A DNA stretch of 64,000 nucleotides from Candidatus Poribacteria bacterium (GCA_965198235.1 OZ240248.1:2848001-2912000), one strand, 5' to 3'. Shown: positions 10,779 to 50,883, counted from the first letter of the stretch. Translations and numbers: made by a program. Notes: generated from the sequence alone by a model not told the origin.

Positions 10779-11570
10779 ATGATATACCGACAAGTTCTTG
10801 CATATCTCTATGTGCTGGCATTCATTCCATTGAGTGTCAAAGCACTACCGCCCCCTTCACCAGCAGGTGGTGGTATGTTGAAGTTAGATGAAAAACACGA
10901 TTTCGTCGCTACCCCCAACGCGTGGTTTCCCGATGAACAGTTTGAGGGATTGACCGCCGAAGCATGGATCTATTTTGAAAATCCACCTGACCCACTCACT
11001 TTCTGGTCAATCATCGGTCAGGAGGGACGATTCAATTTGGTTATTCATGGCAATAATGTTGTATTAGGTGCATGGGGTTATTCTGAAGGTGCGGCTGGAT
11101 CACTGACTTTCGGAGGTGCCCCTTTGCCCAAAAAGGAATGGATACACGTCACAGCGATTTACGATGCATCCGCAGGAATGGGATTTAACGGTAAGGGCGG
11201 CAACTGGTGCTGCCCGAGAGGTCATCTCATTAAATCAGGCAAACCACTTCGTATTGGCGGCATCATTTCACAAGATCCAGAGCGGAGCCGTTTCGTCGGG
11301 GACAACGTGAAATTTCAAGGATACATTGATGAAGTCCGGATATCCAATGTTGTACGATATGTGGGACCAGAGTGGGAGATCCCGAGAGGGAAGTTCGAGG
11401 TTGATAAACACACCATTTCGCTGTGGCACTTTGATGAACCACAGGAGTTAAGCCGTTTCAAAGATGCGTCCGGAAACGGACATCACCTCTGGAGAAGCGG
11501 TGTTATCAGTGGCTTAGCCGTCGAAGCACAACAAAAACTCACAACCACATGGGGACAGCTCAAGCGATGA
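10779..11570 (+). CDS. Secreted LamG/concanavalin A-like protein with conserved C-terminal tail
   Basis: LTAEAWIY, EWIHV, FQGYIDEVRIS, LWHFDE; ends AVEAQQKLTTTWGQLKR. Confidence 0.85.
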   Translation: MIYRQVLAYLYVLAFIPLSVKALPPPSPAGGGMLKLDEKHDFVATPNAWFPDEQFEGLTAEAWIYFENPPDPLTFWSIIGQEGRFNLVIHGNNVVLGAWGYSEGAAGSLTFGGAPLPKKEWIHVTAIYDASAGMGFNGKGGNWCCPRGHLIKSGKPLRIGGIISQDPERSRFVGDNVKFQGYIDEVRISNVVRYVGPEWEIPRGKFEVDKHTISLWHFDEPQELSRFKDASGNGHHLWRSGVISGLAVEAQQKLTTTWGQLKR

Positions 11571-11624
11571 AACCTCTAAAAAGACCTCTACCAACGGTCA
11601 TGTCCAATTGATAACGGTACCCCA

Positions 11625-11846
11625 ATGTCCTATGTATCGGCACTCGCAGGATCAGAACACCGACTCTACGCGGCTACATCAGAGGGCATATTTTTCTCCG
11701 AAAACGATGGGAATACATGGTTCCTCACTGCATTCGATAATGAGGATAAGTTTATCACCACACTCACAACTCATGGAAATACCGTTTATGCGGGAACGTG
11801 GCGCCACGGCGTATTCCGATCAGACAAAATGCTTATTCAGAAATGA
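11625..11846 (+). pseudogene. Fragment of a BNR/Asp-box beta-propeller gene
   Basis: LYAATSEGIFFSENDGNTW and VYAGTWRHGVFRSD blades in only 73 aa. Confidence 0.6.
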
Positions 11847-11928
11847 GACGATTTGATAGAGTCGCAAACCTCTTGACTGATAAGCAAAAAATTGAGTTCC
11901 AAATAGGTTCCCTTCAGCATCACGCCTC

Positions 11929-12043
11929 TGCCCCACTTTGTGCTATTAGGTCTAAGGTCTGCCCTATTTTGTGCAGTGCTTTCTGGACATTTCGCTAAGA
12001 ATCCCACCAGTGTCGTATTGTTCAGATTGGCACGGAATTTGCA
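11929..12043 (+). promoter_or_regulatory. sigma54 promoter with tandem upstream activator-like sites
   Basis: TGGCACGGAATTTGCA at 12028-12043; TGCCCCACTTTGTGC (11929) and TGCCCTATTTTGTGC (11960), 31 bp apart. Confidence 0.8.
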
Positions 12044-12191
12044 ACTTCTTACGGTAACCTCTACCGAATCCATATTAGACAATGGTTGTAACTCCGTCTG
12101 TTTGATTGGCAGGAGATTAGCGATTGTGTTCAGAGAATGCACAAATTTGAACACTTTCAGTTAATGCGTCCCTAAGGAGGAACACAAACAA

Positions 12192-15527: not shown

Positions 15528-15580
15528 ATATGTCAATCCTCAGCGAAACCGCTTGGGTCGCCTACAAGTTTCAACACCTA

Positions 15581-15683
15581 TAGGACTTACGCAGTTGCTT
15601 CATCAAGTCCCCCTGATAAGGGGGATTTAGGGGGTTTAAAAATCAGAAATTTCCTGTTACATGCTAAATTTGCGTAAGTCCTG
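15581..15683. repeat. MITE, AGGACTTACGCA TIR family, copy 1
   Basis: AGGACTTACGCA...TGCGTAAGTCCT; internal hairpin TCCCCCTGATAAGGGGGA. Confidence 0.8.
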
Positions 15684-15744
15684 ACCTAATTCATATAGCC
15701 TCCGACCCTACAGCACAATCGGTTTGGATCCCACTGCGCTGTTG

Positions 15745-18770: not shown

Positions 18771-19213
18771 CCTTTGCTGAAGGAATCTGTAGGCACAGTA
18801 TCCCTGGTCCTTTCCTCCGTCTTCGCTGGTTCCACGGAACAGAAATTACCCATAAGCCTTAGAAAAGGCTCAGAGGCATTCAGTTCTCCTGTCGCATTAA
18901 TGCTTGAATCTAACGACACCCGTGCAGGAGCGAACTCCAGCTCGCGACTTACTCCATAGAATCAACAGAAAGCCGAAAACTGAGTGGCACTTAAAAAACT
19001 TGACTTTTATTTTCATTTCCTGTAAATTCTATTTAGAAGCCATCCGTTAATTGGCAATCTAAGTACCCATAACCACAATCGAATGGAACTACCCTGTCCA
19101 TGAGTCTTGCCGATGTACCTATTGCTTGGGAATCTACACCCTAAGCATATTTCTACAAGAAAACAAACGCATCTTTGCTTTCTATAGCGAAGAGTATTGA
19201 TGGGAGGTTCACA

Positions 19214-20230
19214 ATGTTTTTTCGAAAAAAATCGTTCCCTGTAAAAGTCAATCTACTCACTATTGTTTGCTACGTTTTATTCACACTATCCACACTATCG
19301 GTGATGGCACATTCAGGCGGCGAGGTGACATCCAAAAAAACCGAAACGCCTATCACGATTGATGGAATGCTGGATGAGGCGGAGTGGAACGCAATATTTC
19401 AAGAATCTTCACCCTTGCAAGATATTGTCGTAGACCCACGCGATCCGAAACACGCCCAAGAGTGGTATCAAATTATTCCCGGCGGCGGTGCTGGTAGCGA
19501 CACAAATGACGGTGGACTCCGTGTCAGTCGTGGCAAATTCGATGGCGACGACGATTTTCTGGCACGCTGGGCAACGCTATGGGATGATGACTATCTCTAT
19601 TTCGCGTTTGATGTCACCGATGATACCACGCACGCTTACGCCAATGATTTAGCGACTCGCACTGGAGACATTGACGGGATCTGGTTGATATTCGACACTA
19701 AGCACGATGCCCCTGTCTTTGACTTCCCACACCATGAGTTTGATACGAAACACGTCGCCAATAACAGTTCCTATGAAGCAGACGACCATTATTGGATCTT
19801 CGCGCCTGTAACGACTAAAGACACAAGTGCTGCGTGGGCACAATCGTTGAGTGCGGGGAGTGATCCAGAGTTAGGCGAACCCGCTAACGGACACGTCGCA
19901 GGTCAGAAAACCAATAGTGGTTATTCCGCCGAAATGCGTCTGCCTTGGTCGATTTTTGAGCCGTTCTTCGGCGCAGCCATCTCCCCCACAGACGGCTTAG
20001 CCATCGGATTCGACATCACAATCACAGACATCGACGGGGACGCTCCCGGTACGTATGCCGCTCCCCTTGGCGGTGCTGTCGCTTGGTCGAGTGATTTTGA
20101 AAACGACAACAGTCCAGGTGTGCTCGGTGACCTATTCATTTCCACTGAGGTCATCGGCAGTGCAACGTCTGTTGATCCCGTAGGCAAATTGCCAGTGACA
20201 TGGGGTAAGATTAAGCGCGGCTATAAATAG
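19214..20230 (+). CDS. Secreted CBM9-like sugar-binding protein with conserved C-terminal tail
   Basis: PITIDGMLDEAEW, WDDDYLYFAFDVTDD, YSAEMRLPW, IGFDI; ends VDPVGKLPVTWGKIKRGYK. Confidence 0.85.
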   Translation: MFFRKKSFPVKVNLLTIVCYVLFTLSTLSVMAHSGGEVTSKKTETPITIDGMLDEAEWNAIFQESSPLQDIVVDPRDPKHAQEWYQIIPGGGAGSDTNDGGLRVSRGKFDGDDDFLARWATLWDDDYLYFAFDVTDDTTHAYANDLATRTGDIDGIWLIFDTKHDAPVFDFPHHEFDTKHVANNSSYEADDHYWIFAPVTTKDTSAAWAQSLSAGSDPELGEPANGHVAGQKTNSGYSAEMRLPWSIFEPFFGAAISPTDGLAIGFDITITDIDGDAPGTYAAPLGGAVAWSSDFENDNSPGVLGDLFISTEVIGSATSVDPVGKLPVTWGKIKRGYK

Positions 20231-25595: not shown

Positions 25596-25709
25596 ATTAT
25601 ATAGTGAAGTGAACGGATAGGGTATTCTTGGCTCTTTGTAAGTGTCTCTACCCACGAAACGTGTAATTTGTTACGCTCCCTGATACAACCGTCTTTCTGG
25701 AGACATCAG

Positions 25710-26924
25710 ATGAAAAGCAACGATGTTGAGTTGATCCAACGCACCCTTGCCGGTGATGAGACTGCTTTTGCGAGTTTGATTGAAAAATACCAACGGCAGG
25801 TTCACACGCATGCCCTGCGGCAAATAGGGGACTTCCACATCGCCGAGGATATTACACAGGAGACCTTCCTGCGAGTCTATCAGAACTTGAAAACCCTGAA
25901 TGATCCGACACAGTTTTCAAGGTGGCTTCATGCGATTGTGAATCACCTCTGTATCGCATGGCACCGAAAAAATCGGATGCAGACCGAATCGCTAGAAGAA
26001 ACTCACATCTCGGAAACAGAAAGAGAGGCATATTCCCGATATGTCGCATCAGAACACGAGAAAACATCTGATGAGGCACAACGCGAACTCGTCAAAAAGC
26101 TGCTTGCGAAGTTGAAGGATAGTGACCGAGAGGTTATCACACTCCACTACTTTGAAGAGATGACATCTTCAGAGATAGGCGACTTTTTAGGTGTGTCTGA
26201 AAATACGATTAAGAGCCGACTACACCGGGCGCGACAGCGATTAAAGAAATATCAAGCCCTAATTCAAGAGGTGTTAGACCCTACAATCGAACGGAGACAC
26301 CGTTCCCAACATCCGTCGCAAGGAGAAATCAACATGGCAGAGGAAATGAGAGATGAAGCCAAAATCGAAGCAAGGCTGAAAGAACTACAGCGTCAGATTA
26401 CTGATTTGCAAGAAGAAATTAGGGGTATCGCTGCTGAATCAGACACTTTCCACCCTGATAACATGGAATTTCTTGACCCGGAAAAAAGTGTAGCTCTTAG
26501 GACGCTATGTCGTCTTCCCGATAGTGATGGAAGGGCGATCTCGTGGGGTTATGTCGGCGGCTATCGGACCTCTCCGGGTAAAACGACTGCCCGCGTTGCA
26601 TTCTGGGGCGATAACATCGATAGTTTCCTAACAAAAGCACCAGCCACTGAAATCGTGAACCTTGCAAGTCTCTTCACAAATCCCACTATAGTCGCTGTTT
26701 TAAGGCAATTAGTGGAAGGAAAGAGATCGGTCGCGGATCTGGCAAAAGGGTGTGGTATCTCAGAAAGTGAAATAGAGAAAGCCGTGCAGACATTAATGGA
26801 CGCAACGTTAGTGGCGCGCACGGAAAACGATCTCATCGAACCCAAAAACGATGTCGTCTCCTTTTTTCTGAACTTCGTGAGTATGACAATCGTGCATCTT
26901 GGGCATATCAAATCCGAGAATTAG
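25710..26924 (+). CDS. ECF sigma factor with C-terminal coiled coil and winged-helix-like domain (copy A)
   Basis: Region 2 AEDITQETFL, region 4 SSEIGDFLGVSENTIKSRLHRAR; extension with VLRQLVEGKRSVADLAKGCGISE. Confidence 0.9.
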   Translation: MKSNDVELIQRTLAGDETAFASLIEKYQRQVHTHALRQIGDFHIAEDITQETFLRVYQNLKTLNDPTQFSRWLHAIVNHLCIAWHRKNRMQTESLEETHISETEREAYSRYVASEHEKTSDEAQRELVKKLLAKLKDSDREVITLHYFEEMTSSEIGDFLGVSENTIKSRLHRARQRLKKYQALIQEVLDPTIERRHRSQHPSQGEINMAEEMRDEAKIEARLKELQRQITDLQEEIRGIAAESDTFHPDNMEFLDPEKSVALRTLCRLPDSDGRAISWGYVGGYRTSPGKTTARVAFWGDNIDSFLTKAPATEIVNLASLFTNPTIVAVLRQLVEGKRSVADLAKGCGISESEIEKAVQTLMDATLVARTENDLIEPKNDVVSFFLNFVSMTIVHLGHIKSEN

Positions 26925-27112
26925 ACTCGGTTCGGTACTTCAATGGAGTATCCAGAAATTACCGAATCTTAGGTAAATGGACTTCTGTTTTCGCTAACGA
27001 GGTTAGGAAGAACCCACACGCGGTTTTTCCTAACTTTGCCAACTACAACCACCTTGTCTTAGGAAATCCTCCGACAGATATTCCCTTTCAAACCTACTTT
27101 TCTCCAGAATTA

Positions 27113-27139
27113 TGCACCTACTCCCACCTCATTCGCGTC
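27113..27139 (+). promoter_or_regulatory. Putative ECF-type autoregulatory promoter
   Basis: TGCACC-17-CGTC. Confidence 0.55.
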
Positions 27140-27257
27140 ACTATATAGTGAAGCAAATTGATAGGGTGTTTCTTCTGGTTTTGCAAGCGTGCTTAACCGA
27201 GAAACGTGCAAATTGCACACGCTTTCTTGCTGAAAATAGCCTTTCTGGAGATGTGAA

Positions 27258-33644: not shown

Positions 33645-35116
33645 TCTTCGGGCAGGAGACCCCATCCTGACCCACAGGACAGCACATTGCTTTGTGCAGT
33701 CCTGTGGGATGGTTGGGGAGGAATGCCCGCTCCTTTTTTCTTGATGTATGATGCCAAAAATGTTATACTCTTTACATACCAGTTGGCAGACATACATAGC
33801 GTAATCGCAAGGTTACGTGTCTGCCTACCCACTATGTAGGGGTTAAAAACTGGTGACTGGTAAAACCATGAGAACTGGAAAATATCAAATACGCGACCAT
33901 CGACAGAATATGCGCGTGGGCAATATGCTGGACGATCTCGGTGATGTCCACAACCACTTCTTGGCGTTGGAAAAGCGATATTACCGTATTTACGGCAAGT
34001 ATGCGGGTCGGTATCGGTTGCAACCGCACTTGACGAAGTTGCTCCAACGCACCCATCCGCACTGGGTGTGGATCCCGCGAGATACGCTTGACCAAGTGAT
34101 TGTTCGTATTCATATCGGTTACGAGCGTTTCTTTGATTGGCTTGAAAACGGTAAGCGTGGCAGACGCGTGGGGCCTCCGAAGTTCAAAAAGCGTGGCAAA
34201 TATCGCTCTGCGAAGTTTCAAACCGGCTATAAGATTTTTCAAGAACGCCCGGACGGGAAACCCTCTGTTGTTCCGAAAGGCACGATTCGCTTGTCCTTCA
34301 AAGAATGGGACGCAAGAAAACAAAAGTTCGTTTTTGTCCGCAGGAATATCCTGTATCACCACCACCGCGATTGGGAAGGAAACGTCCGCTATATCCAAAT
34401 CCTTCGCGATCGCGCTGGAACGTATTGGCTTTATGTTGTCACGGATAACACCTCCAAAGAAGTGCTGCCCGCTACAGGTGAAAGCGTAGGCGCAGACTTC
34501 GGTATGGACACCTATCTGACACTGAACACGGGTGAAAAGATCCAACACCCACAACCCTTGAAACACTCCTTGAACGAACTCCGAAACCTCAACAAAGCTG
34601 TCAGCCGAAAGGTCAAAGGTTCTAATAACTGGTGGCGTGCCGTCCGTGAACTCGCACGTCTTTATCGCAAAATTGCCAACCAACGCAAGGATTGGCACTG
34701 GAAACTTGCCACTGACCTCTGCCGAAGGTTTGATACGATCGTAACCGAGACGCTGAACCTTGAGGCAATGAAACGGCTCTGGGGGCGAAAAGTATCTGAC
34801 CTCGCCTTTTACCAGTTTGTTGAGATATTGGATTTCAAGTGTATCAAACATAATCGTGAGTTCTTTCAAGTCGGGCAGTGGACCCCTACCACCAAACCTT
34901 GTTCTGACTGTGGACATCACAACGATAAACTTTCACTTTCTGATAGGCAGTGGATATGCCCCGACTGTGGTTCTCACCACGACCGAGACATCAATGCTGC
35001 GATAAATATCTTGAGGGCTGCTTGCGGTCCCTCTGTGGAGATAGCGTAAGACCTTCTACGGAAGGCTGCTGTCTACGAAGCACAAGCCCCACGCTTTAGC
35101 GTGTGGGTGCCTTGAC
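33642..35116 (+). mobile_element. IS200/IS605 family element, tnpB only (IS1341-like, non-autonomous)
   Basis: Left-end hairpin GGGCAGGAGACCCC...GGGGAGGAATGCCC; right-end hairpin CAAG-CCCCACGCTTTAGCGTGTGGG ending TGAC; no tnpA; no target duplication seen. Left boundary approximate. Confidence 0.85.
33853..35049 (+). CDS. tnpB: RNA-guided endonuclease TnpB
   Basis: PPKFK, RuvC-I GADFG, RuvC-II TETL, Zn ribbon CSDC/CPDC, RuvC-III HDRDINAAINI. Confidence 0.95.
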   Translation: MTGKTMRTGKYQIRDHRQNMRVGNMLDDLGDVHNHFLALEKRYYRIYGKYAGRYRLQPHLTKLLQRTHPHWVWIPRDTLDQVIVRIHIGYERFFDWLENGKRGRRVGPPKFKKRGKYRSAKFQTGYKIFQERPDGKPSVVPKGTIRLSFKEWDARKQKFVFVRRNILYHHHRDWEGNVRYIQILRDRAGTYWLYVVTDNTSKEVLPATGESVGADFGMDTYLTLNTGEKIQHPQPLKHSLNELRNLNKAVSRKVKGSNNWWRAVRELARLYRKIANQRKDWHWKLATDLCRRFDTIVTETLNLEAMKRLWGRKVSDLAFYQFVEILDFKCIKHNREFFQVGQWTPTTKPCSDCGHHNDKLSLSDRQWICPDCGSHHDRDINAAINILRAACGPSVEIA

Positions 35117-35136: not shown

Positions 35137-35378
35137 ACGGCAACGGTCGCAACACCTCTAACAAACCGCGATTGGCACAATACATGAACTTCTATCCCGT
35201 TCCTGATCCGATGGATGAGGAGCGGCGGCAAGAACGCATTACACTATGGCGGGAACGGAGAGCATTGGGACGAGATCCGTATCCTGGCGACCCACGGGGT
35301 TGGGAAGCGAAAAACTATGGACCCGCAGAACTTACGCCCTTGGGACGGAAGTTATTGGGACTTGATTTCTGGGATTAA
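35117..35378 (+). pseudogene. PhyH 3' fragment
   Basis: WHKALPHGNGRNTSNKPRLAQY (distal His and 2OG-binding Arg), LTPLGRKLLGL. Confidence 0.8.
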
Positions 35379-36175
35379 TATTTCTTAAGCATCGCCCAAC
35401 TTGTGGCTAATTTCCCTTGCGGGTCCACACCGAGTGCTGCTTGCAATCCGTTCTCCCGAATCGCATTGATCTGATTTTCACTCAACTCCACGTTGAAGAT
35501 GGCAACCTCATCGAAAAGACCAAACATAAATTCGTGGTGCGCCAGAAAGTCCCCCATGGTAACCTCCTGTGCCTCATCATTTGTGTCCATCGCCTGATCG
35601 GTGCCCTCTTTGGATTGGAGTTTACCATCGACATAGAGGTCATGGTCTTTCACAGCGTCCGAACCTTTGGGAAAGACCACCGCCATGTGGTGCCACTCCT
35701 CATCACACACCTCCTCTTCCCCGTAATTTTGTCCGCCGGCGACCTCAACTCTCAAATTGCAGCCGCCGCCTCTCAGATGTGCCCGGATGTAGTACTTTTC
35801 GCCTGTAAGATTCGGTCCCCATTTTACCCATGAATGTTCTCTTGTATCCCCGGCTTTAAACCAGAAGACCGTCGTTCTCGGATCTGTGCCACCAACCCCA
35901 GCGTAGCCGGTAACAACTAAATTATCATCTTTGCCATCGTAATCTAAACAGGTCCCAAACACACCTTTGACGTATTTCGCCCCAGATATGTCCCCATCGT
36001 GACCGTTCCCAGAGAGATCTTTGGCGACATTACCCTTCCCTTCGTCAAAGAGATAGGCGACCTCAACAGTTTTCGAGTCAATCGGAGCAGTATGGCTAAT
36101 ACTCGTAACCAATGATCCGAAAGTGACAATAATTAACCAAACCAGCGTAAAACTGGCTCGACCTCCAAGTTTCAT
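35375..36175 (-). CDS. Secreted LamG-like protein with conserved C-terminal tail
   Basis: FDEGKGNVAKDLSGNG, EWHHMAVV, LFDEVAIFN; ends VDPQGKLATSWAMLKKY; AGGAGG RBS. Confidence 0.88.
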   Translation of the reverse strand: MKLGGRASFTLVWLIIVTFGSLVTSISHTAPIDSKTVEVAYLFDEGKGNVAKDLSGNGHDGDISGAKYVKGVFGTCLDYDGKDDNLVVTGYAGVGGTDPRTTVFWFKAGDTREHSWVKWGPNLTGEKYYIRAHLRGGGCNLRVEVAGGQNYGEEEVCDEEWHHMAVVFPKGSDAVKDHDLYVDGKLQSKEGTDQAMDTNDEAQEVTMGDFLAHHEFMFGLFDEVAIFNVELSENQINAIRENGLQAALGVDPQGKLATSWAMLKKY

Positions 36176-36630
36176 ATTTTCCTCCTGTGTGAAAAATATC
36201 ATCAGATTTCAGACCTAAACCCCACTATTTCAATGTGGGATATAGGGCCGCTTCCGTATATTAGTCCAAAGTTTTCTAAAAAAAGATTGTAGCAAAATCG
36301 CTCAAAATAGGCAAGTGAGAAGTTGCCTGAAATAAAATGCTACATTTTTTCGTTTTAACCCAATTTTTGTGTGAACCTAAGTTGCTATCTAACAAATTTT
36401 GGAGAGTAGCGGATGTTTTCCGCGCACTGTCTGCAATACGACTTTGCTTGACGATTTCCCCGGGGAACTCGCCTACTAATGACTGATGGCTATTCTTCAC
36501 TTGTGTAGGAAAGCGATGCACTTTTCCCATTTTTTTCTTGAATGATATGCTAAAATAAATTAACCTGTTAACCAAAATGCAGTATATGCGTTATTTTCAT
36601 GTAGTAAAACTGAAGTATAGAAGATTCATA

Positions 36631-39055: not shown

Positions 39056-40774
39056 ATGAAAAAGCGAAACCTATTCCACAAGTGCTTTCTTCCCACAACA
39101 CCGAGTTCAGTCGTCGAACGCATAAGGCATTATCGACGAAGCCTGTTCTCAATACTAACCCTCGGCGTATTTCTATCGGGATACTTAGGTCTGTTTGGCG
39201 AAGAAGTCGAGCGGACGCCGCCTGCCCCCGCGGAATTCACTTTCGATCAGTACGAGATCGTTATTGGCTCCGCGAAACGCCAGACCGTTCTGACGGGATT
39301 TCTTCTCGGTGGTGATTTCGCGGAACTTGCCGTGGTGCACATCGACGAGAACGATGATCGTCGTTTGCGCATTTACGCGTTCGATGACAACACTTGGGCA
39401 CTAAGACTCGACGCAACGCTGCGTTCCGAAGTATTGTTCGTCGATGTAGCAAATATTGACGGACGCGACCGACTAATTACGTACGAACGCGGCCGTCTGA
39501 GCTGGTTTGATCCCGAATCGGCGACGGAACGCGCGCTGGTGGCGGTTACTTCTAACTTCAAGCCGCCTCGCAGCGGCGAAATCCCCCATGTAGACATCAC
39601 GCGGGACGTGAACGCCGACAACCGCGACGATCTGGTGGTGCCTGACTTAGATGGATTCTCGGTGTTCATCCAGATGAGCGACGGCACGTTCGCTGATCCA
39701 GTGAAACTCGGTCCGTCCACTGAAATGGAAAGAATCCTCGGAGCCGACGGATATCGGTATGACCCTTGGTCTCAGAGCCGTGTCTATGAAATCGACTATG
39801 ACAGAGATGGTCGCACCGACCTTGTGTTCTGGAACGAGGACCACTTCAAGGTTCATCTCCAGGACGAGCGCGGGCTGTTTGCACCGAAGCCCAGAACCTT
39901 CATGACCGATGTGGCATTCGACTCTGACCGGCTCTCCGCACTCGCCACCGGGGACATGATAGGAAAAGTGCTGCACTCGTTGGGAGACCTGAACGGCGAC
40001 GGCATCGCCGACTTGGTGGTTTTCAAACTTTCGGGCAAGGACATCTCTAAAAAGCACACCACCTACGAGGTGCATTTCGGCGCGCCAACACCCGATGGTG
40101 GCACCCTGTTCTCACGGAGCGTTGACATCGCGTTCCAGTCAGACGAGAGAATCCAGCTCGGGATGGAACAGCACGACTTCGATCACGATGGCAAGGTCGA
40201 CCTTATGATCCCGACCATCGATATCGAGTTCCTCAAAGGCAGCCTCTGGAAAAGCATCAAGGGGTTCATGGGGGATGATGTCTGGCTGGATATCGAGTTC
40301 TACCAAATGGAAGAAGGCCGCTACCCCAGCACACCCAACACCATCCGCAGAATCGCGTTGGACGGAGTGCCCAGCCATCGCGAGCCGGGGTGGGTGCCAC
40401 TGGACATCATGCTTCGAGGGGGAACACACGAGAGACGGAACACTCAAAAGAGTTACCCGCGCGCGTTCAACACAACTTTGCGCATCGGGGATGTGACCGG
40501 CGACGGCCGCTCAGACTTGCTCCTCGCGGATCACCCTCGGATCATGGGTGTCCTCGTCGGCGTGCCGGGGCCGGAAATATTCGCCCAGCGGCCTCAGGGG
40601 GTGGCGATCGCCCCTCCCAACGACGAGGAATACACCTGGCTGGTGGACCTCAACAAGGATGGGGTGCAGGATATCCTTATGCATCATCCATTCACACTAC
40701 GGGATGCTCACGGAGCTCCGATACAACCTCCGGGAACCGAACCGCATCGGGTGACGATGCTGATCGCCCGGTAA
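39056..40774 (+). CDS. FG-GAP/VCBS repeat exported protein 1
   Basis: DVNADNRDDL, DYDRDGRTDL, DLNGDGIADL, DVTGDGRSDL, DLNKDGVQDI. Confidence 0.88.
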   Translation: MKKRNLFHKCFLPTTPSSVVERIRHYRRSLFSILTLGVFLSGYLGLFGEEVERTPPAPAEFTFDQYEIVIGSAKRQTVLTGFLLGGDFAELAVVHIDENDDRRLRIYAFDDNTWALRLDATLRSEVLFVDVANIDGRDRLITYERGRLSWFDPESATERALVAVTSNFKPPRSGEIPHVDITRDVNADNRDDLVVPDLDGFSVFIQMSDGTFADPVKLGPSTEMERILGADGYRYDPWSQSRVYEIDYDRDGRTDLVFWNEDHFKVHLQDERGLFAPKPRTFMTDVAFDSDRLSALATGDMIGKVLHSLGDLNGDGIADLVVFKLSGKDISKKHTTYEVHFGAPTPDGGTLFSRSVDIAFQSDERIQLGMEQHDFDHDGKVDLMIPTIDIEFLKGSLWKSIKGFMGDDVWLDIEFYQMEEGRYPSTPNTIRRIALDGVPSHREPGWVPLDIMLRGGTHERRNTQKSYPRAFNTTLRIGDVTGDGRSDLLLADHPRIMGVLVGVPGPEIFAQRPQGVAIAPPNDEEYTWLVDLNKDGVQDILMHHPFTLRDAHGAPIQPPGTEPHRVTMLIAR

Positions 40775-40831
40775 ACCTAAAGGAGATCGGAAGATTTTGA
40801 TAAAAGGTTACTTATATTTTTCGCCTACAGG

Positions 40832-40844
40832 TTAACACTGTTCA
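40832..40844. promoter_or_regulatory. Putative TetR operator, copy 3
   Basis: TTAACACTGTTCA within a duplicated leader. Confidence 0.7.
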
Positions 40845-40891
40845 TTTACTTATCTATGTTAATATATCGAAAAATCCAAAAGGAGAACAAA

Positions 40892-42529
40892 ATGAAAAAG
40901 CGAAACCCATTCCACAAACACTGGATTTCCGAAAAAATTAGTTCCTTGTTTCCACGCACAAGGCATTATCGGCAGAGCCTGTTTTATATACTGATTTTTG
41001 GAGTCCTCCTGTCGGGCTGTTCGGGCTTGCTCGATAAAGATGTCGTTCCGATGCAGCACGCCGCCGCGGAATTGGCTTTTGAGCAGCATAAAGTTGTCAC
41101 CGGGATAGCGAAACACCAAACTGTTTTAACAGGATTCCTGCTCGGTGGTGCTATCGCGGATCTTGCTGTGGTAAGTATTGACGAAAACAATGACCGATAC
41201 CTACATATCTATGCGTGCAACGACGGCACTTGGGTATCGAGAATAGACACAGCGTTGCGTCCCGAAGTCTTGCTCGTTGATGTTGCAAATATCGATGGAC
41301 GTGACCGCTTGATCACGTACGAGCACGGTAAACTGAATTGGTTCGATCCCGAATCGGCGACGGAACATGTGCTGGTGACAGTTCCTTCCATGGTGCCACC
41401 TCCCAGCGACGCCATCCCTCACGTAGACATCACTCACGACGTGAACGCTGATGCCCGTGACGATCTGGTAATACCGGATTCTGACGGCTTCTGGGTGTTC
41501 ATTCAGACGAAAAATAGAGGGTTCACCGATCCAGTGAAACTCGGTCCGCCCACTGAGGTAAATAGAATCTACGATGCCGATGAATATCGACACACGCCGT
41601 GGAATAAAAGCCGTATCCATCAAATGGACTACAACCGAGATGGACAAAATGATCTGGTGTTCTGGAACGCAGACCACTTTGAGGTTCATTACCAAGACGA
41701 GCATGGACTTTTTGCACCAAATGCCAAAACCTTCACAACAGATGTGGCGTTCGATGCCGACGAACTCGCATCGCTCGCTGCACCATACGGCGTTCGTCGA
41801 CGGCGCAGGGATCATCAACCGACCGGAAATCTGACAGGAAGGGTTCTACACGCCTTAACCGACATGAACGGCGACGGCATCGCCGACCTTGGTGTTTTCT
41901 CGCTGAAGGGAGGTGGCCTATGGCACATGCACTCCACCTACGAGGTGCATTTCGGCACGCCGACACCGGATGGCGGCGTTACCTTCGCTTCGGAGGTCAG
42001 CACTGCACTTCAGGTGGACGGCATTCCGTTCACGATGGAACAGCATGACTTGAACCACGACGGGCAGGTCGACATGATGTTCACCACCATCAAACCGCGT
42101 ATCTTCAAAGTTATCGGTATGATTATCGGATCAGTTCTGACGGGTTCCGGGTCGCTGGATCTTGAGTTCTACGGCATGGCGGGCGACATCTATCCTGACA
42201 AGCCGAGCACGACCCGAAAAATCAAATCGTACCCCCCCAGTGAAACAGGTGGAAGAACTGCGTTCTCGTTTGTGCTGATCGGGGATGTCAACGGCGACAA
42301 ACGTTTGGATATGTTAGTGAAGCACGAACCGAAAGAACTCCGCGTCTTTACCGGCGTATCCGGACCACACCTGTTCAATCGAAAACCTCAAAAGGTGGCA
42401 GTAGCCATCCCCAACAACGAAAAATATACTTGGTTAGTAGACATCAATCAGGACGGTAAACAGGATCTTCTCATGTACCACCCGTCCACCACTAAGTCAC
42501 ATTGGATAACACTGCTAATTGCTCAATAA
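40892..42529 (+). CDS. FG-GAP/VCBS repeat lipoprotein 2
   Basis: LSG-C lipobox; repeated DxNxDG motifs; paralog of 39056. Confidence 0.88.
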   Translation: MKKRNPFHKHWISEKISSLFPRTRHYRQSLFYILIFGVLLSGCSGLLDKDVVPMQHAAAELAFEQHKVVTGIAKHQTVLTGFLLGGAIADLAVVSIDENNDRYLHIYACNDGTWVSRIDTALRPEVLLVDVANIDGRDRLITYEHGKLNWFDPESATEHVLVTVPSMVPPPSDAIPHVDITHDVNADARDDLVIPDSDGFWVFIQTKNRGFTDPVKLGPPTEVNRIYDADEYRHTPWNKSRIHQMDYNRDGQNDLVFWNADHFEVHYQDEHGLFAPNAKTFTTDVAFDADELASLAAPYGVRRRRRDHQPTGNLTGRVLHALTDMNGDGIADLGVFSLKGGGLWHMHSTYEVHFGTPTPDGGVTFASEVSTALQVDGIPFTMEQHDLNHDGQVDMMFTTIKPRIFKVIGMIIGSVLTGSGSLDLEFYGMAGDIYPDKPSTTRKIKSYPPSETGGRTAFSFVLIGDVNGDKRLDMLVKHEPKELRVFTGVSGPHLFNRKPQKVAVAIPNNEKYTWLVDINQDGKQDLLMYHPSTTKSHWITLLIAQ

Positions 42530-42547
42530 GCAAAAAGGAGAACAATA

Positions 42548-43084
42548 ATGATACGCTCAATTTTTTGCCTGATTTGTATCTTTTTAGGGGTAACCCTCAG
42601 TTTCCCAGTTCAGGCACAAGGAACTGACCTCACCAAAAATTTCGGTATTGGACTCCAGGGAACCACCCCTGAATTTGGTGGAATTAGTTTTCGCTATACC
42701 GGACTCGCACCCGTATACCTTCAAACCGTTGGACGTTTTATCCTCAACGATCAGAATAGCGACCACATGTTAGGTGCCGGCATTTCGTATGCTATATTTG
42801 AGCACCAAAGCAGGTGGAACCTATCCCGACTCTATTTCACCTTAGAAGGTGCCTGGCGATATGAAAAAAAGCAAGATCTGGACCTGGGACAAGAACTGAC
42901 CAAATCCACGACCCTCGGAGCAGGACTCGCTTTTGGAGGTGAGCTTGTGTTTTCACTCGGAGGGATCCCTCTCGGCTTGAATGTAGAAGTCGGTCAAGGG
43001 TTTGGTAGGGAAAAAACCAGCTCTCAAGATCGAAGAAAACTCGCTGGTGTTTACATAGGCGGGGGCATACATGCCTACTTTTAA
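42548..43084 (+). CDS. Small outer-membrane beta-barrel protein 1
   Basis: Signal peptide AQA, Gly-rich amphipathic strands, C-terminal GIHAYF. Confidence 0.8.
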   Translation: MIRSIFCLICIFLGVTLSFPVQAQGTDLTKNFGIGLQGTTPEFGGISFRYTGLAPVYLQTVGRFILNDQNSDHMLGAGISYAIFEHQSRWNLSRLYFTLEGAWRYEKKQDLDLGQELTKSTTLGAGLAFGGELVFSLGGIPLGLNVEVGQGFGREKTSSQDRRKLAGVYIGGGIHAYF

Positions 43085-44732
43085 AATCCCTTTTGACGTA
43101 GCTTGCAAGCCAAAACTTGCTATTAAAAGTCAGTGCCTGTTCTCCATACTGGTTTTTAGTGTATTCCTGTCGGGATGCTCGGGACTGATCGGCGAAGAGG
43201 TTGAGCTCATGATGCCTGCCGCCGCGGAATTCACTTTCGAGCAGCACGAGGTCGTCACCGGCGCAGCACAACACCAGACCGTTTTGACGGGGTTCTTCCT
43301 TGATGGTGCTGTCGCAGAACTTGCCGTGATAAACGTCGACGAGAACGGCGACCGTCGCTTGTGCATCTACGCATTTGACGATAGCACCTGGGTGCCGAGA
43401 CTCGATGCAACGCTGCGTCCGCAAGTGCTGTTCGTTGACGTAGCCAACATCGGTGGACGCGACCGACTGATGACGTACGAGCGCGGCCGTCTGAACTGGT
43501 TCGATCCCGAATCGGCGACGGAACGCGCGCTGGTGGAAGTCGCTACGAACTACAACGCGGCGGACGAGGACGAAATCCCTCAGATTGACATCACCCGAGA
43601 CGTAAACCGCGACGGTCGTGACGACCTGGTGGTGCCGGATGTCAATGGGTTCTGGATATCCACGCAATTGCGCAACGGCTCGTTCACCGAGCCAGTAAAA
43701 CTCGGTCCTCCCGAACCATTTTTCGACGAGATTGCCTTGGATGATACGCGCAGCTACGGCGAGATCGGTATAACTGCCTTGACCATCCCTTGGTATCTGA
43801 GTCGTGTCCACGAGATGGACTACGATCAGGACGGGCGCAGCGATCTCATGTTCTGGAACAAGGACCATTTCGACGTTTATCGCCAAGATGCTAACGGGAT
43901 GTTTTCTCCAGTGGCAGAGACCTTCACTGTCAACATCCCATTCGATGCTGATGGTGTTTACTCAATCGCCTTCGGATTCAGCGGCGAGAGCGCGTTCTCG
44001 CTCATCTTTGGATTCAGAGAAAACACGAAGCTGACAGTGCTGCACTCGTTCCGCGACGTGAATGGCGATGGTGTCACTGACTTGGTGATCCTCTCGCTGG
44101 AGGGACGAAGCCTACTGAACCAGCGCAGCCTATATGAGGTGCATTTCGGCACACCAACACCCGACGGCATCTTGTTCGCACGGGAGGTTAGCACGGTGAT
44201 CCAACCGCAAGGAACCGGTGGTGCGTTGCAGTACTCGGGATATTCGTCCGTGTGGTTCCAGGATTTCGATGGGGATGGCCAGGCCGACATTATATTCAGA
44301 GACGTAAACATAGGTGTTGGGGGGATAATGCGTGCGCTTCTCGGCAATTCCGTCATGATAGATGTTGAGTTCTATCGCATCGAAGACGGCATCTACCCCA
44401 ACAAGCCAACTACCACGCATAAAATCAGACCCGCCATCAACCCCTTTGACAAACAAAACATATTCTTATCACCGGTACTGATGGGAGATGTGAACGGCGA
44501 CAGACGCTTGGACCTGCTGGTGGGGAAGAGTCGGGAAGAACTGCAAGTCTTTATCGGTGTACCTGGGCCCGACCTGTTGGCGCGGCAGCCCAAAAAGGTC
44601 GCAGTCACCTTGCCTATGGACGAACGGAATACCCAGCTGGTGGACCTCAACAAGGACAACAAGCAGGACATCCTCATGTATCATCCGTCTACTACTGATT
44701 CGCACCGAGTGACACTACTACTCGCTCAATAA
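43071..44732 (+). CDS. FG-GAP/VCBS repeat lipoprotein 3
   Basis: LSG-C lipobox; DxNxDG repeats; start overlaps the barrel gene stop. Confidence 0.85.
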   Translation: MPTFKIPFDVACKPKLAIKSQCLFSILVFSVFLSGCSGLIGEEVELMMPAAAEFTFEQHEVVTGAAQHQTVLTGFFLDGAVAELAVINVDENGDRRLCIYAFDDSTWVPRLDATLRPQVLFVDVANIGGRDRLMTYERGRLNWFDPESATERALVEVATNYNAADEDEIPQIDITRDVNRDGRDDLVVPDVNGFWISTQLRNGSFTEPVKLGPPEPFFDEIALDDTRSYGEIGITALTIPWYLSRVHEMDYDQDGRSDLMFWNKDHFDVYRQDANGMFSPVAETFTVNIPFDADGVYSIAFGFSGESAFSLIFGFRENTKLTVLHSFRDVNGDGVTDLVILSLEGRSLLNQRSLYEVHFGTPTPDGILFAREVSTVIQPQGTGGALQYSGYSSVWFQDFDGDGQADIIFRDVNIGVGGIMRALLGNSVMIDVEFYRIEDGIYPNKPTTTHKIRPAINPFDKQNIFLSPVLMGDVNGDRRLDLLVGKSREELQVFIGVPGPDLLARQPKKVAVTLPMDERNTQLVDLNKDNKQDILMYHPSTTDSHRVTLLLAQ

Positions 44733-44750
44733 ACAAAAGGGAGAAAAATA

Positions 44751-45266
44751 ATGATACGCTCAATTTTTTGCCTGATTTGTATCTTTTTAGGGATCACCCT
44801 CAGTTTTTCAACTCAGGCGCAAGCAGCTGATCTCACTAAAAATTTTGGTGTTGGACTTCAGGGCGCAACCCCCACATTTGGCGGAATTAGTTTCCGCTAT
44901 ACCGGACTCGCACCTGTATATCTTCAAACGGTTGGACGTTTTATCCTCAGCGATCAGAATAGCGACCACATGTTAGGTGCCGGCATTTCGTATGCCATAT
45001 TTGAGCACCAAAGCAGGTGGAACCTATCCCGACTCTATTTCACCTTAGAAGGTGGTTGGCAATTTAAAGAAGAACGGGATATCCTTACCACGACGTTGGG
45101 AGCCGGCATCGCTTTCGGCGGTGAACTTGTGTTTTCTTTTGGAGGCATCCCTTTGGGTTTGAACGTAGAAGCCGGTCAAGGGTTTGGTCGGGAAAAAACC
45201 GGCTTTCAAGATCGAAGAAAACTCGCTGGTGTTTACATAGGCGGGGGCATACACGCCTATTTTTAA
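44751..45266 (+). CDS. Small outer-membrane beta-barrel protein 2
   Basis: Near-identical paralog of 42548. Confidence 0.8.
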   Translation: MIRSIFCLICIFLGITLSFSTQAQAADLTKNFGVGLQGATPTFGGISFRYTGLAPVYLQTVGRFILSDQNSDHMLGAGISYAIFEHQSRWNLSRLYFTLEGGWQFKEERDILTTTLGAGIAFGGELVFSFGGIPLGLNVEAGQGFGREKTGFQDRRKLAGVYIGGGIHAYF

Positions 45267-46777: not shown

Positions 46778-46795
46778 CGTTGCGTTCACACCCAT

Positions 46796-47686
46796 TCAAT
46801 CCAATTTACGATGCGCTGCCTCCCACTCTTCCCACGTCGGTTTACGCCCTTCAGTGAGAACGACAAGCGGCACTCTACTGCCCCTCAGAGCTTTAGTGTT
46901 CACGAATTCGGCGGCTTCACGCGCTTCGGTAGTCAAGTCAGCCGGGTCAGGCGTGGGAAAGTAGCGGAAGTCGATGCTCCAACGGGATTTCCGCGTTGTG
47001 TTCACTTTGCTGGTATGTACGCAAAGGTTCGACATAAACAGCGCACCACCAGGTTTCAGAGGAACAGGCACTGGCGTGCCACGCGCTTCAACATCCTCCT
47101 CCATCCGGACGTTTGAATCCGCACCTCGTGCACCGTCGAGTAAACCCCAACGGTGACTACCCGGGATGACCCAGCAACATCCATTTTCGACCGTCGCTTC
47201 CACCAGCGGCACCCATACCGTAACCATGTGGAGATCGCCTGTGTGCTTCTCTTTTTTTCCGATAGTTGACTGGTCGAGATATTGACTGTCTTGGTGCCAT
47301 GGGAACGAGGTAATCACGCTTCCGGGGAGTTTCGTTCGTAATGCCGGGGTGCCGATATTCGAGACTTCAGGACCCAAGAGAAGGCGAAGCACGTCCAAAA
47401 CACCGGGCAGGTTATAGAGATCGTAAAACTCACGTCCATACATACCAAAAATCCAGTTGCGAGGCAATATATCCAACTCTTCGCAGATAGCAGCATATCG
47501 CCGCTCAAAGGATTCGTCTTCATACCGCGACGATAGCTTCCCTTCACTATACAACTCACGGCTATGCGTATCAACCTTCGCCTTGATAAAGTCGCGAATC
47601 GGCTCTAAATCTCGATCATCAATAAGGTCTCTGACCACAACGTAACCATCACGTTCATAAGAGGTTCTGATTTCCTGATCTGTCAT
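46796..47686 (-). CDS. Phytanoyl-CoA dioxygenase family (PhyH)
   Basis: PWHQD, ENGCCWVIPGSH, VHTS..N...RWSIDFRY. Confidence 0.92.
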   Translation of the reverse strand: MTDQEIRTSYERDGYVVVRDLIDDRDLEPIRDFIKAKVDTHSRELYSEGKLSSRYEDESFERRYAAICEELDILPRNWIFGMYGREFYDLYNLPGVLDVLRLLLGPEVSNIGTPALRTKLPGSVITSFPWHQDSQYLDQSTIGKKEKHTGDLHMVTVWVPLVEATVENGCCWVIPGSHRWGLLDGARGADSNVRMEEDVEARGTPVPVPLKPGGALFMSNLCVHTSKVNTTRKSRWSIDFRYFPTPDPADLTTEAREAAEFVNTKALRGSRVPLVVLTEGRKPTWEEWEAAHRKLD

Positions 47687-47810
47687 CAGTTATTCTCCTT
47701 CCGTCGTTGTTGCGCAATCTCAAGAGATATGCTATCATGAATGCTTAGTGTACGCAATATAATTGAACTTTTCCAACCAACGCACGTCCGAAAACCGTTC
47801 GGGAGATAAT

Positions 47811-48563
47811 TTGGTGAACACAACACGTAAGATTGTCGCAATCGGTGGTGGAGAACTTAAAATGCTGGAAACCGCCGACATTGACAAACGCATCATTGAG
47901 TTGACCGGCAAAACACGACCAAAGGCACTCTTTATTCCAACTGCCAGTGGTGACGCTCCTGGATATGTGGATACCTTTGAGACGTACTACGGCGAGCACT
48001 TCGGGTGTCAAACGCTCACCCTCAACCTGATTCAAAGTCCTCCGACGTTTGAGAAGATGTCGGCATTGGTATTGGATTCAGATCTGATTTATGTCGGTGG
48101 TGGAAATACCTATAGGATGATGAAAATATGGCGACGGTTGGGGTTGGACACTGTGTTAGCGGAAGCAACATCCCGCGGTATTGTCCTGTCGGGGCTCAGT
48201 GCAGGTGCGATCTGCTGGTTCAAATGCGGTTGCAGTGATTCTCGTTCCTTCTCCAGCAACTTAGAGTGGGACTATATCCGTGTGAGTGGGTTGGGATTCA
48301 TCAATGCTGTATACTGTCCTCATTATCACAGCGAGAAGAGGGAAGATGCCTTTTCAAAGATGATTGCAAAACGGGGTGGTATCGGAATTGCCTGCGATAA
48401 CAACGCCGCAATTGAGATTGTTGGAAACCATTACCGCGTACTTACCTCTGATCCGAATGCAAAGGCATACAAACTCTTCAAGCGGAACGGGCGCGCCGTT
48501 ATTGCGGAATTACCTCGAAACAGTCAATACAGCTCCTTAGCCAACCTCTTGAAGCGGAGATAA
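47811..48563 (+). CDS. Peptidase E (S51 family)
   Basis: IVAIGGG, FIPTASGD, YVGGGNT, GLSAGA, CPHY; start codon uncertain. Confidence 0.9.
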   Translation: MVNTTRKIVAIGGGELKMLETADIDKRIIELTGKTRPKALFIPTASGDAPGYVDTFETYYGEHFGCQTLTLNLIQSPPTFEKMSALVLDSDLIYVGGGNTYRMMKIWRRLGLDTVLAEATSRGIVLSGLSAGAICWFKCGCSDSRSFSSNLEWDYIRVSGLGFINAVYCPHYHSEKREDAFSKMIAKRGGIGIACDNNAAIEIVGNHYRVLTSDPNAKAYKLFKRNGRAVIAELPRNSQYSSLANLLKRR

Positions 48564-48694
48564 TATCAAATTTCTTTGGATTATAACTGTCGGGCTATTC
48601 AGTTCTTCTGTAGGAGGGAATTCCGATTCCCGACACCTCACTGTAACACCTATTGATTCTTTTAACCGATTTCATACACAAAGAGGAAGCAAAC

Positions 48695-49828
48695 ATGAAA
48701 ATTACCGATGTAAAAGCGATGACACTAAAGGGATACAAACAGTGGAACTACGTCCAGATCGAAACTGACGACGGGTTGACAGGTATAGGTGAGGCGCATC
48801 CTGGGGCAGGAATCGCCGAAATTATCCTGCAATTCAAGAAGACGCTCGTCGGCGCAGATCCAAGAAATATAGAACCCCTCTACCACCGAATGATTGGTGC
48901 AGCGAGCAATCGATACGCAATGGGTTTATCGGCTATCGGTGGGATAGAAACAGCACTGTGGGATCTGCTTGGAAAGAGCCTTGGCGTGCCGGTCTATCAA
49001 CTGTTAGGTGGAAAATATCGAGACCGTATCCGACTCTATGCCGATGTCGGACACGGAAAAGGGAACACACCTGAAGGTTGGGCGCAGCGAGCCAAGGAAG
49101 GCGTTGCAGACGGGTACCAAGCAATCAAGTTCGACATCGATAACTCCGCAAACGAACTCAAGCAGGATGTGGTCAATCGGGAACTCAGTACAGCGGAATT
49201 ACAGAAAATGACATCGTTGGTCGCCGCCGCACGAGAAGCCGCTGGCGATGGAATCGACATCAGTATCGACTGTCATAGCCTATTCAGCACCCACTCAGCG
49301 ATGAAACTTGCTGAACGCTTGGAGCCGTTCGATTTAATGTTTTTGGAAGACCCAGTACCGAATGATAACGTCGAAGCGATGGCGAAGGTTAGTTCCGCCA
49401 CTTCTATTCCCATCTGTACCGGCGAATTCCTGTTCCGACGAGACGGCTTCAGGGAACTAATCCAGACCCAAGCCTGTGATATGCTACATGTCGATGTGTC
49501 TGGAACAGGCGGGATACTTGAAGCGAAGAAGATTGCAGATCTGGCAGACCTCTATTATATCCCGTTTGCTGCGCACAACATCACATCGCCAATCGGAATG
49601 ACAGCGACAGCACACGTTTGTGCCGCCGTACGGAATTTCATCGTCATGGAACTCCCATATCACGCCGATCAAGTTGAGTGGCGGTGGGATCTCGCAATTT
49701 CCGACGAACCGCTTATGCAAGATAGCGCATTTGTGCTGCCAGAGCGACCCGGATTGGGTGTCGAAATCAACGCAGACGTTGCAAGAGAACATCTCATGCC
49801 TGGGTCTGACCATTTTGGCATCGCCTAA
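48695..49828 (+). CDS. Mandelate racemase/acid-sugar dehydratase (enolase superfamily)
   Basis: ETALWDLLGK, IKFD, IDCH, LEDP, TGE, RPGLG. Confidence 0.92.
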   Translation: MKITDVKAMTLKGYKQWNYVQIETDDGLTGIGEAHPGAGIAEIILQFKKTLVGADPRNIEPLYHRMIGAASNRYAMGLSAIGGIETALWDLLGKSLGVPVYQLLGGKYRDRIRLYADVGHGKGNTPEGWAQRAKEGVADGYQAIKFDIDNSANELKQDVVNRELSTAELQKMTSLVAAAREAAGDGIDISIDCHSLFSTHSAMKLAERLEPFDLMFLEDPVPNDNVEAMAKVSSATSIPICTGEFLFRRDGFRELIQTQACDMLHVDVSGTGGILEAKKIADLADLYYIPFAAHNITSPIGMTATAHVCAAVRNFIVMELPYHADQVEWRWDLAISDEPLMQDSAFVLPERPGLGVEINADVAREHLMPGSDHFGIA

Positions 49829-49926
49829 ATTTCAGCAACAGGTGTACTTTGGGCATACACCGCTTCTCAACTGGCGAGGGTTCCTGGGGGAAACACCCAA
49901 GCAAAAACACCTCGGCACTAATACGG

Positions 49927-50883
49927 TTACTGCTTGCTTTTGAGATTTCCCCAGAGTGTCACCAACTTTTCTTGTGGCAAAACCGCTAAGGGTATCGGCT
50001 GCCAAGCGGGACCCCTATTCCTTCCAGCCTGATTTTGAGTGAGATTGACAGGATTGGAACCGTCGTCATCCATTACATAGATGTCATCCTTACCTTCTCG
50101 GTCAGAAGTAAAAGCGATTTTTGTTCCATCTGGAGACCAGGCAGCCCGATCATCAAATGCGAATAGGTTGTGAGTCAGTTGAATGGTATTGGAGCCATCA
50201 GCATCCATCACATAGATTTCAAAATCACCATCTCGACCTGAAGTGAAGGCAATTCGCTTGCCATCTGGAGACCAGTCAGCACTCCTGTCCCATGGCTCCA
50301 GGTTTTTCGTCAGTTGAATCGGTCTGCCACCGCTAACTCCTATCACATAGATTTCACGATCACCGTCGCGGTCTGAGGTGAACGCTATTTTTGTCCCATC
50401 CGGAGACCAATCTGGGTGACGGTCTGCTTTTGGATGCCGTGAGATATTCGTGGGATTGGTACCATCCGCGCGCATGATATAGATCTCTTCGTTCCCTCGG
50501 TTTGAGCCGTAGACGATTTGCGTCCCATCCGGAGACCAGTCAGCACCAAAGTCGCCTGACGAATTTCGTGTGAGATTTATGCGATTTGTCCCATCAGCAT
50601 TTATCGCATAGATATCGTAAACGCCTTTTGGGTTCGAGGTAAAAGCGATGCGCTTACCGTCTGGAGACCAAGTAGGCCCGCTGTCTGCCGCCGGATTTTT
50701 AGTAAGTCTGACCGAGGCTCTTCCATTGGCATTCATCACATAGATTTCAGAATTACCATCTCGGTCTGAGGTAAAGGCGATTTTCATAGCAGCCGCCGGT
50801 ATCTGCTCTGCCAATACGATGAAAAGACCTACCAATACTGCTAAAAAACACTTCTGTAAACAGATAGGAAATGTCAACTTCAT
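49927..50883 (-). CDS. TolB-like PD40 beta-propeller with conserved C-terminal tail
   Basis: Repeated [19 protein letters not shown]; ends [19 protein letters not shown]. Confidence 0.9.

Follow-up and report, generated by a model that had tools for sequence, protein, structure and literature searches.

Four genes in a 64,000-nucleotide stretch of DNA from a sponge-associated Candidatus Poribacteria bacterium, here called the window (C1:2848001-2912000 of genome G000, which has 5.17 Mb on two contigs and is 96.3% complete), encode exported proteins that end in the same peptide. This tail is a portable C-terminal tag of about 20 residues with three parts, a flexible linker, a core of 10 residues and a short end. 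It is present on about 180 proteins of the genome with Sec-type export (~4% of the genes), which are mostly small, of a sugar- or protein-binding type and built on many unrelated folds, and it probably docks or routes these exported proteins in the cell envelope. The linker often has the form A/P-V-E/D-P-x-G/D and the core the form K-L-x-T-T-W-G-x-[LI]-K. The core is usually followed by 2-4 residues, mostly basic or polar, and then by the free C-terminus. The distance from the last lysine to the end was 2-4 residues in 118 of 143 tails, and these end residues are rich in arginine (mean net charge +0.64).

Occurrence of the tail in the window, the genome and two phyla

To count the tail in the genome, we searched the six-frame translation with the regular expression K-L-x3-W-[GA]-x-[LIVM]-K and calculated the chance expectation from the residue frequencies. 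The search gave 132 matches versus 0.45 expected by chance. All 132 were located 0-18 residues before a stop codon, although the last 30 positions hold only 8.9% of the gene residues. A hidden Markov model (HMM) of 22 positions, built from 129 tails and searched over 65,066 stop-to-stop frames, identified 182 frames with a tail at most 20 residues from the stop. No internal copy was found among the 65,066 frames, the best internal score (6.9) being at the noise level. The strictly C-terminal position, for which an earlier note on the window had proposed an HMM and a genome-wide count as a check, was thereby confirmed. A few further, diverged tails were recognisable by eye in paralogues. As an outside control, the core pattern was searched in 2.9 million viral contigs. 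Eleven of the 14 matches were internal and lacked the linker context, which means that the terminal position is not inherent in the pattern. The other three were true C-terminal tails on LTD, LamG and esterase proteins.

The tail is universal in Poribacteria. The tail HMM matched all 151 genomes of the phylum and all 22 genera, with 26-353 first-look candidates per genome, of which at most 55 were scored. Close homologues bear the NCBI name Candidatus Poribacteria bacterium. A related ending was found in Eisenbacteria, where a DNA pattern for T-T-W-G-x-h-K matched in 41 of 41 genomes (40 published genomes and the unpublished G166), with 327 matches in total, 1-44 per genome, and three matches of the reversed control. 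Of 30 sampled matches (29 published loci), 28 end at most 4 residues from the stop. The variant of this phylum can be written as [TV]-P-[TV]-x-x-T-T-W-G-x-[IVL]-K-x-[LM]-[YF]-R (end TTWGxIKxLYR), and because it lacks the K-L of the poribacterial core, the poribacterial HMM gave no match on one Eisenbacteria genome at E up to 0.01. The pattern also matched in 2 of 61 genomes from the phylum to which Microbacterium belongs. A very specific Eisenbacteria-type DNA pattern, searched in all species genomes, met one Eisenbacteria locus and 10 chance internal matches in Microbacterium.

Within the window, the genome-wide HMM search identified exactly four carriers. These are the four genes named in the earlier note, all of which were found as open reading frames, with the Pfam domains Laminin_G_3 (twice), CBM9_1 and PD40:

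10779..11570, + strand: carrier 1, signal peptide, LamG domain (Laminin_G_3) and tail, 263 amino acids (open reading frame, Pfam, tail HMM match)
11514..11567, + strand: tail of carrier 1, last 18 residues, stop codon directly after (translation, tail alignment)
19175..20230, + strand: carrier 2, signal peptide, CBM9-like domain and tail (open reading frame, Pfam CBM9_1, AlphaFold model m931f317db45b)
20168..20227, + strand: linker and tail of carrier 2, last 20 residues (AlphaFold model, RNA-library contigs)
35375..36202, - strand: carrier 3, signal peptide, LamG domain and tail, 275 amino acids (open reading frame, Pfam, AlphaFold model m3124f13eaa0a)
35378..35431, - strand: linker and tail of carrier 3, last 18 residues (translation, AlphaFold model)
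49927..50883, - strand: carrier 4, signal peptide, PD40 beta-propeller and tail, 318 amino acids (Pfam PD40 with 188.7 bits, tail HMM match)
49930..49986, - strand: tail of carrier 4, last 19 residues (translation, tail alignment)

Carrier 2 has two alternative starts, TTG at 19175 (351 amino acids) and ATG at 19214 (338 amino acids), and carrier 3 comprises 266 amino acids when read from its second ATG. The four tails quoted in the earlier note are exact by translation; three of them extend 1-3 residues past the quoted end to the stop and finish with RGYK, KKY and KSKQ. Its consensus is broken once each in two of the four tails, by A for P (VEAQQ) and by A for G (WAMLK). The description of the carriers as four unrelated proteins is a slight overstatement, as two of the four are LamG proteins. 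The LamG domain alone does not bring the tail, since an apiosidase-like enzyme with a C-terminal LamG domain (window 4103-6586) is not a carrier. RNA-library contigs from four libraries of one sponge metatranscriptome study cover carrier 2 and span its tail codons in three of the four, with DNA carry-over being possible. The gene of carrier 1 (10779-11570) is not covered by such contigs, a gap that is uninformative.

Properties of the carriers and of the tail peptide

The carriers are exported proteins. A signal-peptide-like, hydrophobic N-terminus was present in 152 of the 157 full-length carriers (those of at least 195 amino acids in the gene set used) versus 946 of 3100 other genes by the same liberal test, which speaks against cytoplasmic carriers. 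The 22 of the 182 frames without a signal-like N-terminus are nearly all short fragments. A lipobox-like motif occurred in four of the 157 carriers and a later transmembrane-like stretch in five. After removal of the tail, the 162 carriers of at least 150 amino acids fell into 36 BLAST clusters, the largest of which contained 79 LamG proteins. When one representative per cluster was compared with Pfam, matches were obtained to Laminin_G_3, PD40, ankyrin, LTD/Big_12, Kelch, F5/8 type C (discoidin), NPCBM and CBM9, together with weak F5/8 and DUF4960 matches below the Pfam cut-off. No Pfam family was matched by 22 of the 36 representatives, and none of the Pfam matches of the 36 was an enzyme domain.

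AlphaFold2 models were calculated for two unrelated carriers, the LamG protein carrier 3 (83-row alignment) and the CBM9-like carrier 2 (52 rows). Their bodies were modelled with confidence, the mean predicted local distance difference test (pLDDT) scores being 89.8 and 79.3, respectively. The linker had a pLDDT below 50 in both (residues 251-255 and 318-324), and the core was predicted with low confidence as a short helix, at residues 256-265 of the LamG protein (pLDDT ~58) and residues 326-336 of the CBM9-like protein (block means 56-66). According to both models, the tail is not part of the preceding domain but lies outside its fold, after a disordered linker. The core has a mean Eisenberg hydrophobicity of 0.02 and the tail contains no transmembrane-like window, in agreement with the statement of the earlier note that it has no transmembrane helix.

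It is the peptide that is conserved and selected, and not a DNA or RNA element, since the third codon positions across 129 tails are nearly random (entropy of 1.7-2.0 bits) and leucine is encoded by all six codons. A DNA or RNA repeat as the source of the tail was ruled out by this codon analysis. Among homologues with an overall identity of 55-85%, the K, L, T, W and K columns of the tail were at least 90% conserved, and for carrier 3 the tail was kept in 120 of 120 homologues, among the matches listed. Taken together, the results refute the view that there is no tag at all, in whose favour nothing was found. On this view, the tail would be an accidental motif, a DNA or RNA repeat that happens to be translated, or the final structural element of the domains before it. 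Against it stand the excess of matches over chance expectation, the saturation of the third codon positions, the presence of the tail on unrelated folds, from which it is detached in the two models, and the mostly internal position of the pattern matches in viral contigs.

The tail can also be exchanged for other endings. Among 72 homologues of the CBM9 carrier of the window, 62 had the tail according to the HMM and 63 by eye. Six of the 72 instead carried a Cys-rich extension of ~85 residues at the same junction, attached to a body of ~52% identity. This extension opens with a dockerin-type Ca-loop, and its profile aligned with that of the genome's own dockerins in hhalign (probability 79%, E 1.6e-5, 22 columns), while the Pfam Dockerin_1 model reached only E 0.013-0.08, in two of the five extensions scanned. 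In addition, a passenger domain of ~190 residues occurs both in the arrangement signal peptide-domain-tail and inside proteins with a type IX secretion system (T9SS) C-terminal domain (CTD). The dockerin-like swap and the shared passenger domain indicate that the tail belongs to a set of interchangeable C-terminal add-ons that otherwise consists of docking or sorting modules.

Comparison with known C-terminal signals

The tail did not correspond to any characterised sorting family in searches against Pfam and NCBIfam, in the hhalign comparison with CTDs and in searches for exosortase and PEP-CTERM. No Pfam match overlapped the tail in 40 carriers and no match of NCBIfam release 20 in 39 carriers (E limit of 10 for four of them and of 0.01 for the other 35), and in the literature no description of the tail was found. 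The T9SS type A CTD (TIGR04183/PF18962, FlgD-Ig-like) resembles the tail in its extreme C-terminal position, its occurrence on Sec-exported proteins with many passenger domains and its presence in the same genomes. However, the signals known for T9SS each consist of a folded domain with about 70-100 residues, and the type A CTD is a folded beta-sandwich of ~75-90 residues, whereas the tail has ~20 residues that are predicted to be disordered or weakly helical; the earlier note was right in calling it much shorter. The cargo differs as well, with a median length of 263 amino acids for tail carriers and 538-2232 amino acids for those CTD proteins that were mapped. The CTD profile spans about 72-80 positions. 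Neither PF18962 nor FlgD_ig matched any of 40 carriers scanned, and TIGR04183 reached only E 0.22 on the PD40 carrier, at residues 35-66 and thus away from the tail. An hhalign comparison of the tail profile with the CTD profile of the genome gave a probability of 0.14%, by which an origin of the tail as a truncated T9SS domain was ruled out.

The small tripartite signals (PEP-CTERM, LPXTG, GlyGly-CTERM, PGF-CTERM and MYXO-CTERM) share with the tail that they are short, portable and strictly C-terminal, that they occur on many paralogous exported proteins and that they combine a signature motif containing proline (V-E/D-P in the tail) with basic residues at the end. In contrast to the tail, they have a membrane-spanning stretch between motif and basic end. 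The genome contained no match to PEP-CTERM (PF07589) and, at 96.3% completeness, none to exosortase (PF09721), for which the control matched in one archaeon; the exosortase route was therefore ruled out. Dockerins, like the tail, are C-terminal add-ons on very many otherwise unrelated secreted proteins. They are, however, Ca-binding modules of ~60-70 residues with a duplicated EF-hand and far longer than the tail, which is too short for the Dockerin_1 motif (PF00404; no match in 40 carriers scanned). Moreover, the dockerins of this genome are located on CTD proteins and not on tail carriers, and we know of no cohesin-like partner for the tail. In these comparisons, the tail matched no catalogued signal.

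In layout, the tail resembles the C-terminal membrane-targeting helices of PBP5/DacA and MinD, which likewise have a flexible linker and, at the very C-terminal end, a short helix of a few turns at most. The core could be a short amphipathic helix lying in the plane of a membrane leaflet or on lipopolysaccharide, one face of which would bear L, W and L/I and both flanks lysine, so that no protein receptor would be needed. Such a direct lipid anchor would fit the short helix that both models predict after the flexible linker, the extreme C-terminal position and the basic residues that follow the core. We nevertheless consider it improbable. The helices of PBP5/DacA and MinD are conserved in pattern rather than in residues, whereas in the tail K, L, W and K do not vary, and T-T-W-G hardly varies, over 36 unrelated carrier families and two phyla, which goes far beyond the needs of generic membrane binding. 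Furthermore, the helical hydrophobic moment at 100 degrees was the same as that of shuffled tails (0.305 vs 0.305), the pLDDT of the helix was only 56-66, and the mean hydrophobicity is ~0.

The genome also contains T9SS-like parts, which are located outside the window (C1:1015768-1023337, C1:3831533-3833634 and C1:981354-988073). The type A CTD was found above the cut-off in 23 proteins. In 20 CTD proteins scanned (L108-L127), Dockerin_1 was present just upstream of the CTD in at least 10 and Cohesin in at least four, which suggests a cohesin-dockerin network among the surface proteins. The passengers of CTD proteins include LRR, WD40, FG-GAP, sulfatase and subtilase domains. Behind one WD40-CTD gene (C1:241628-244440), 24 bases past its stop, we observed a Kelch-like frame of 228 amino acids with a TTWG tail and without a signal peptide, which has the appearance of a gene remnant or of an exchanged 3′ end. 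Of the candidate apparatus, 11 paralogous PorV/PorQ-type barrels (two over the Pfam cut-off) were detected, as well as three giant C25 PorU-like proteins, one of which had a Peptidase_C25 match of 287 bits together with an FlgD_ig CTD and directly precedes a PorV-like barrel. An SprA-like protein of 2239 amino acids scored 26.7 bits with SprA_N, just under the cut-off of 27. One PorV orthologue was present in 41 of 41 genomes sampled, and in 10 of 11 other genomes the gene after it is DUF5683-like. With the models for GldL and GldM, no match was obtained in the genome, but the controls were silent too. Matches to GldK (TIGRFAM) proved to be small FGE-sulfatase-like proteins of ~300 amino acids that align to the N- and C-terminal parts of GldK (examples at C1:1354741-1355520, 863692-864444, 3877219-3877977 and 3518807-3519595), and one FGE-sulfatase-like gene immediately precedes that of a PorV-like barrel. 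Kamke et al. (2014; PMC3909097) reported TIGR04183 domains on eukaryote-like proteins of Poribacteria. According to passages of that article, no Por structural genes were found in the poribacterial single-cell genomes and the secretion route of the surface proteins 'remains to be revealed'; these passages do not mention the tail.

These findings bear on a second explanation, according to which the tail is an outer-membrane export signal. As a minimal address at the C-terminus, it would be read in the periplasm by a secretion machine, T9SS-like or other, and be removed or kept after translocation. The genome offers candidate parts for such a machine in the 11 barrels, the three PorU-like proteins and the SprA-like protein, the PorV orthologue is present in every genome sampled, and the passenger domain of ~190 residues is found with either ending. 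Tag and type A CTDs also occurred together in every genome tested for both, namely G000 and the 41 Eisenbacteria genomes. In each of the latter (40 without G166), the number of type A CTDs was between 31 and more than 107. The two endings thus coexist in Poribacteria and Eisenbacteria, in opposite proportions in the two phyla. This co-occurrence, however, does not discriminate between the explanations, because every tested genome of both phyla has T9SS parts. The tail profile is unlike the CTD profile of the genome, known T9SS signals are folded and several times longer, GldL and GldM were silent as were their controls, and GldK matched small FGE-like proteins. We regard an export signal as unlikely, though it deserves to be taken seriously.

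A possible docking role and the neighbourhood of the carriers

We tentatively propose that the tail is a docking or retention tag that is read after export, a role that seems plausible if somewhat short of probable. In this mechanism, Sec export and removal of the signal peptide would come first. The disordered linker would then present the core to one envelope partner shared by all carriers, either a receptor protein or a surface structure, and the core would become ordered upon binding. The lectin-like or eukaryote-like module would thereby be retained on the cell envelope or surface. Functionally, the tail would correspond to a miniature dockerin or to a counterpart of the T9SS CTD held by an outer-membrane barrel. 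What makes docking plausible to this degree is the combination of terminal position, selection on the peptide, exported carriers, portability, location outside the fold, the dockerin-like swap, a separate CTD signal already in use and conservation across genomes. Of the proposal in the earlier note that the tail is a portable secretion, surface-anchoring or docking tag, the portable C-terminal tag on exported proteins stands, while its role in secretion, anchoring or docking is still inferred.

Several observations weigh against docking. A receptor for the tail was not found in the neighbour and adjacency searches. The carriers are dispersed in the genome, and no gene family was significantly enriched beside them (±3 genes, 169 of the 182 carriers, 500 permutations; the 13 carriers absent from the greedy gene set were dropped from the test). 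Inspection of the neighbours one family at a time gave no significant partner either. The best neighbour family (3 of 3) had p = 0.01 uncorrected, and FGE-sulfatase-like genes were within three genes of a carrier in 6 of 15 cases (p = 0.08). The helical state of the tail is predicted at low confidence only, and its hydrophobic moment does not differ from that of shuffled tails, as described above. The dockerin-like swap consists of six metagenome proteins and a weak profile match and is an analogy of position only. A putative esterase (PF00756) with a TTWG-type tail, encoded on a contig filed as viral (L050:1495-2604, - strand), is the only enzyme carrier seen and shows that the cargo is not strictly non-enzymatic. 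Finally, the type of cargo and the position of the tag suit an export signal equally well.

A pairing of the universal PorV orthologue with an adjoining ankyrin carrier was considered and rejected, as the adjacency was kept in 0 of 11 other genomes. When residues 26-374 of this orthologue were co-folded with the 31 C-terminal residues of the LamG carrier of the window, the score was 0.00 in a run without controls, which is evidence neither way. The neighbour analysis also concerns a further explanation, in which the tail is a processing or turnover tag. A C-terminal protease or a maturation enzyme of the periplasm would recognise it and so set the lifetime or activation of the carrier. The constrained distance between the last lysine and the free C-terminus and the conserved V-[ED]-P motif of the linker would be consistent with this. 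But no peptidase was enriched beside the carriers, and a degron on ~4% of the genes, nearly all of them for binding modules, that is under strong purifying selection throughout the phylum would be hard to explain. We consider a turnover tag very improbable and place it behind docking, an export signal and a lipid anchor, in this order.

Besides the carriers, the window contains several further features. A TnpB/IS605 OrfB-type gene (33853-35049, + strand; OrfB_IS605 and Cas12f1-like TNB) adjoins the LamG carrier at 35375-36202, and a gene for a multi-pass membrane protein with DUF6785/DUF6784 (50993-52906, - strand) lies beside the PD40 carrier. The family of this membrane protein counts 35 paralogues genome-wide and shows no enrichment beside carriers. 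Three paralogous FG-GAP proteins of 572, 557 and 553 amino acids are encoded at 39056-45266 (+ strand) with a TetR regulator upstream, the second and third being followed by small open reading frames (178 and 171 amino acids) without a family. Two adjacent genes at 25668-28445 (+ strand) encode sigma factors of the extracytoplasmic function (ECF) type with long C-terminal extensions (418 and 395 amino acids). The intergenic region at 15604-15637 holds a G/C hairpin repeat of ~30 bases (CCCCC-loop-GGGGG, then GGGGG), of which the genome has 28 copies at no more than four mismatches, many of them shortly after the end of a gene. On this repeat, RNA-library contigs accumulate to a summed depth of 500-800, with many different flanks. 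It may be a dispersed element similar to repetitive extragenic palindromic (REP) sequences or to terminators.

Poribacteria are dominant uncultured symbionts of sponges, and the tail bears on the question of how their many eukaryote-like and glycan-binding proteins get to the interface with the host. A tag on about 180 proteins per genome marks one specific sub-secretome and provides a handle for finding its machinery. It is conceivable, though rather doubtful, that Poribacteria and Eisenbacteria have a new envelope-display system in common, for which the TTWG tail would serve as address label. One dedicated reader, perhaps one of the expanded PorV/PorQ-type barrels or a protein of no known family, would recognise it, and ~4% of the proteome would be placed on the sponge-facing surface. 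If so, the displayed cargo would comprise binding modules of lectin-like and eukaryote-like type, among them ankyrin and Kelch proteins. Should the reader of the tail prove to be new, the tail would add to the C-terminal signals of Gram-negative bacteria a kind without a transmembrane helix and without a folded domain.

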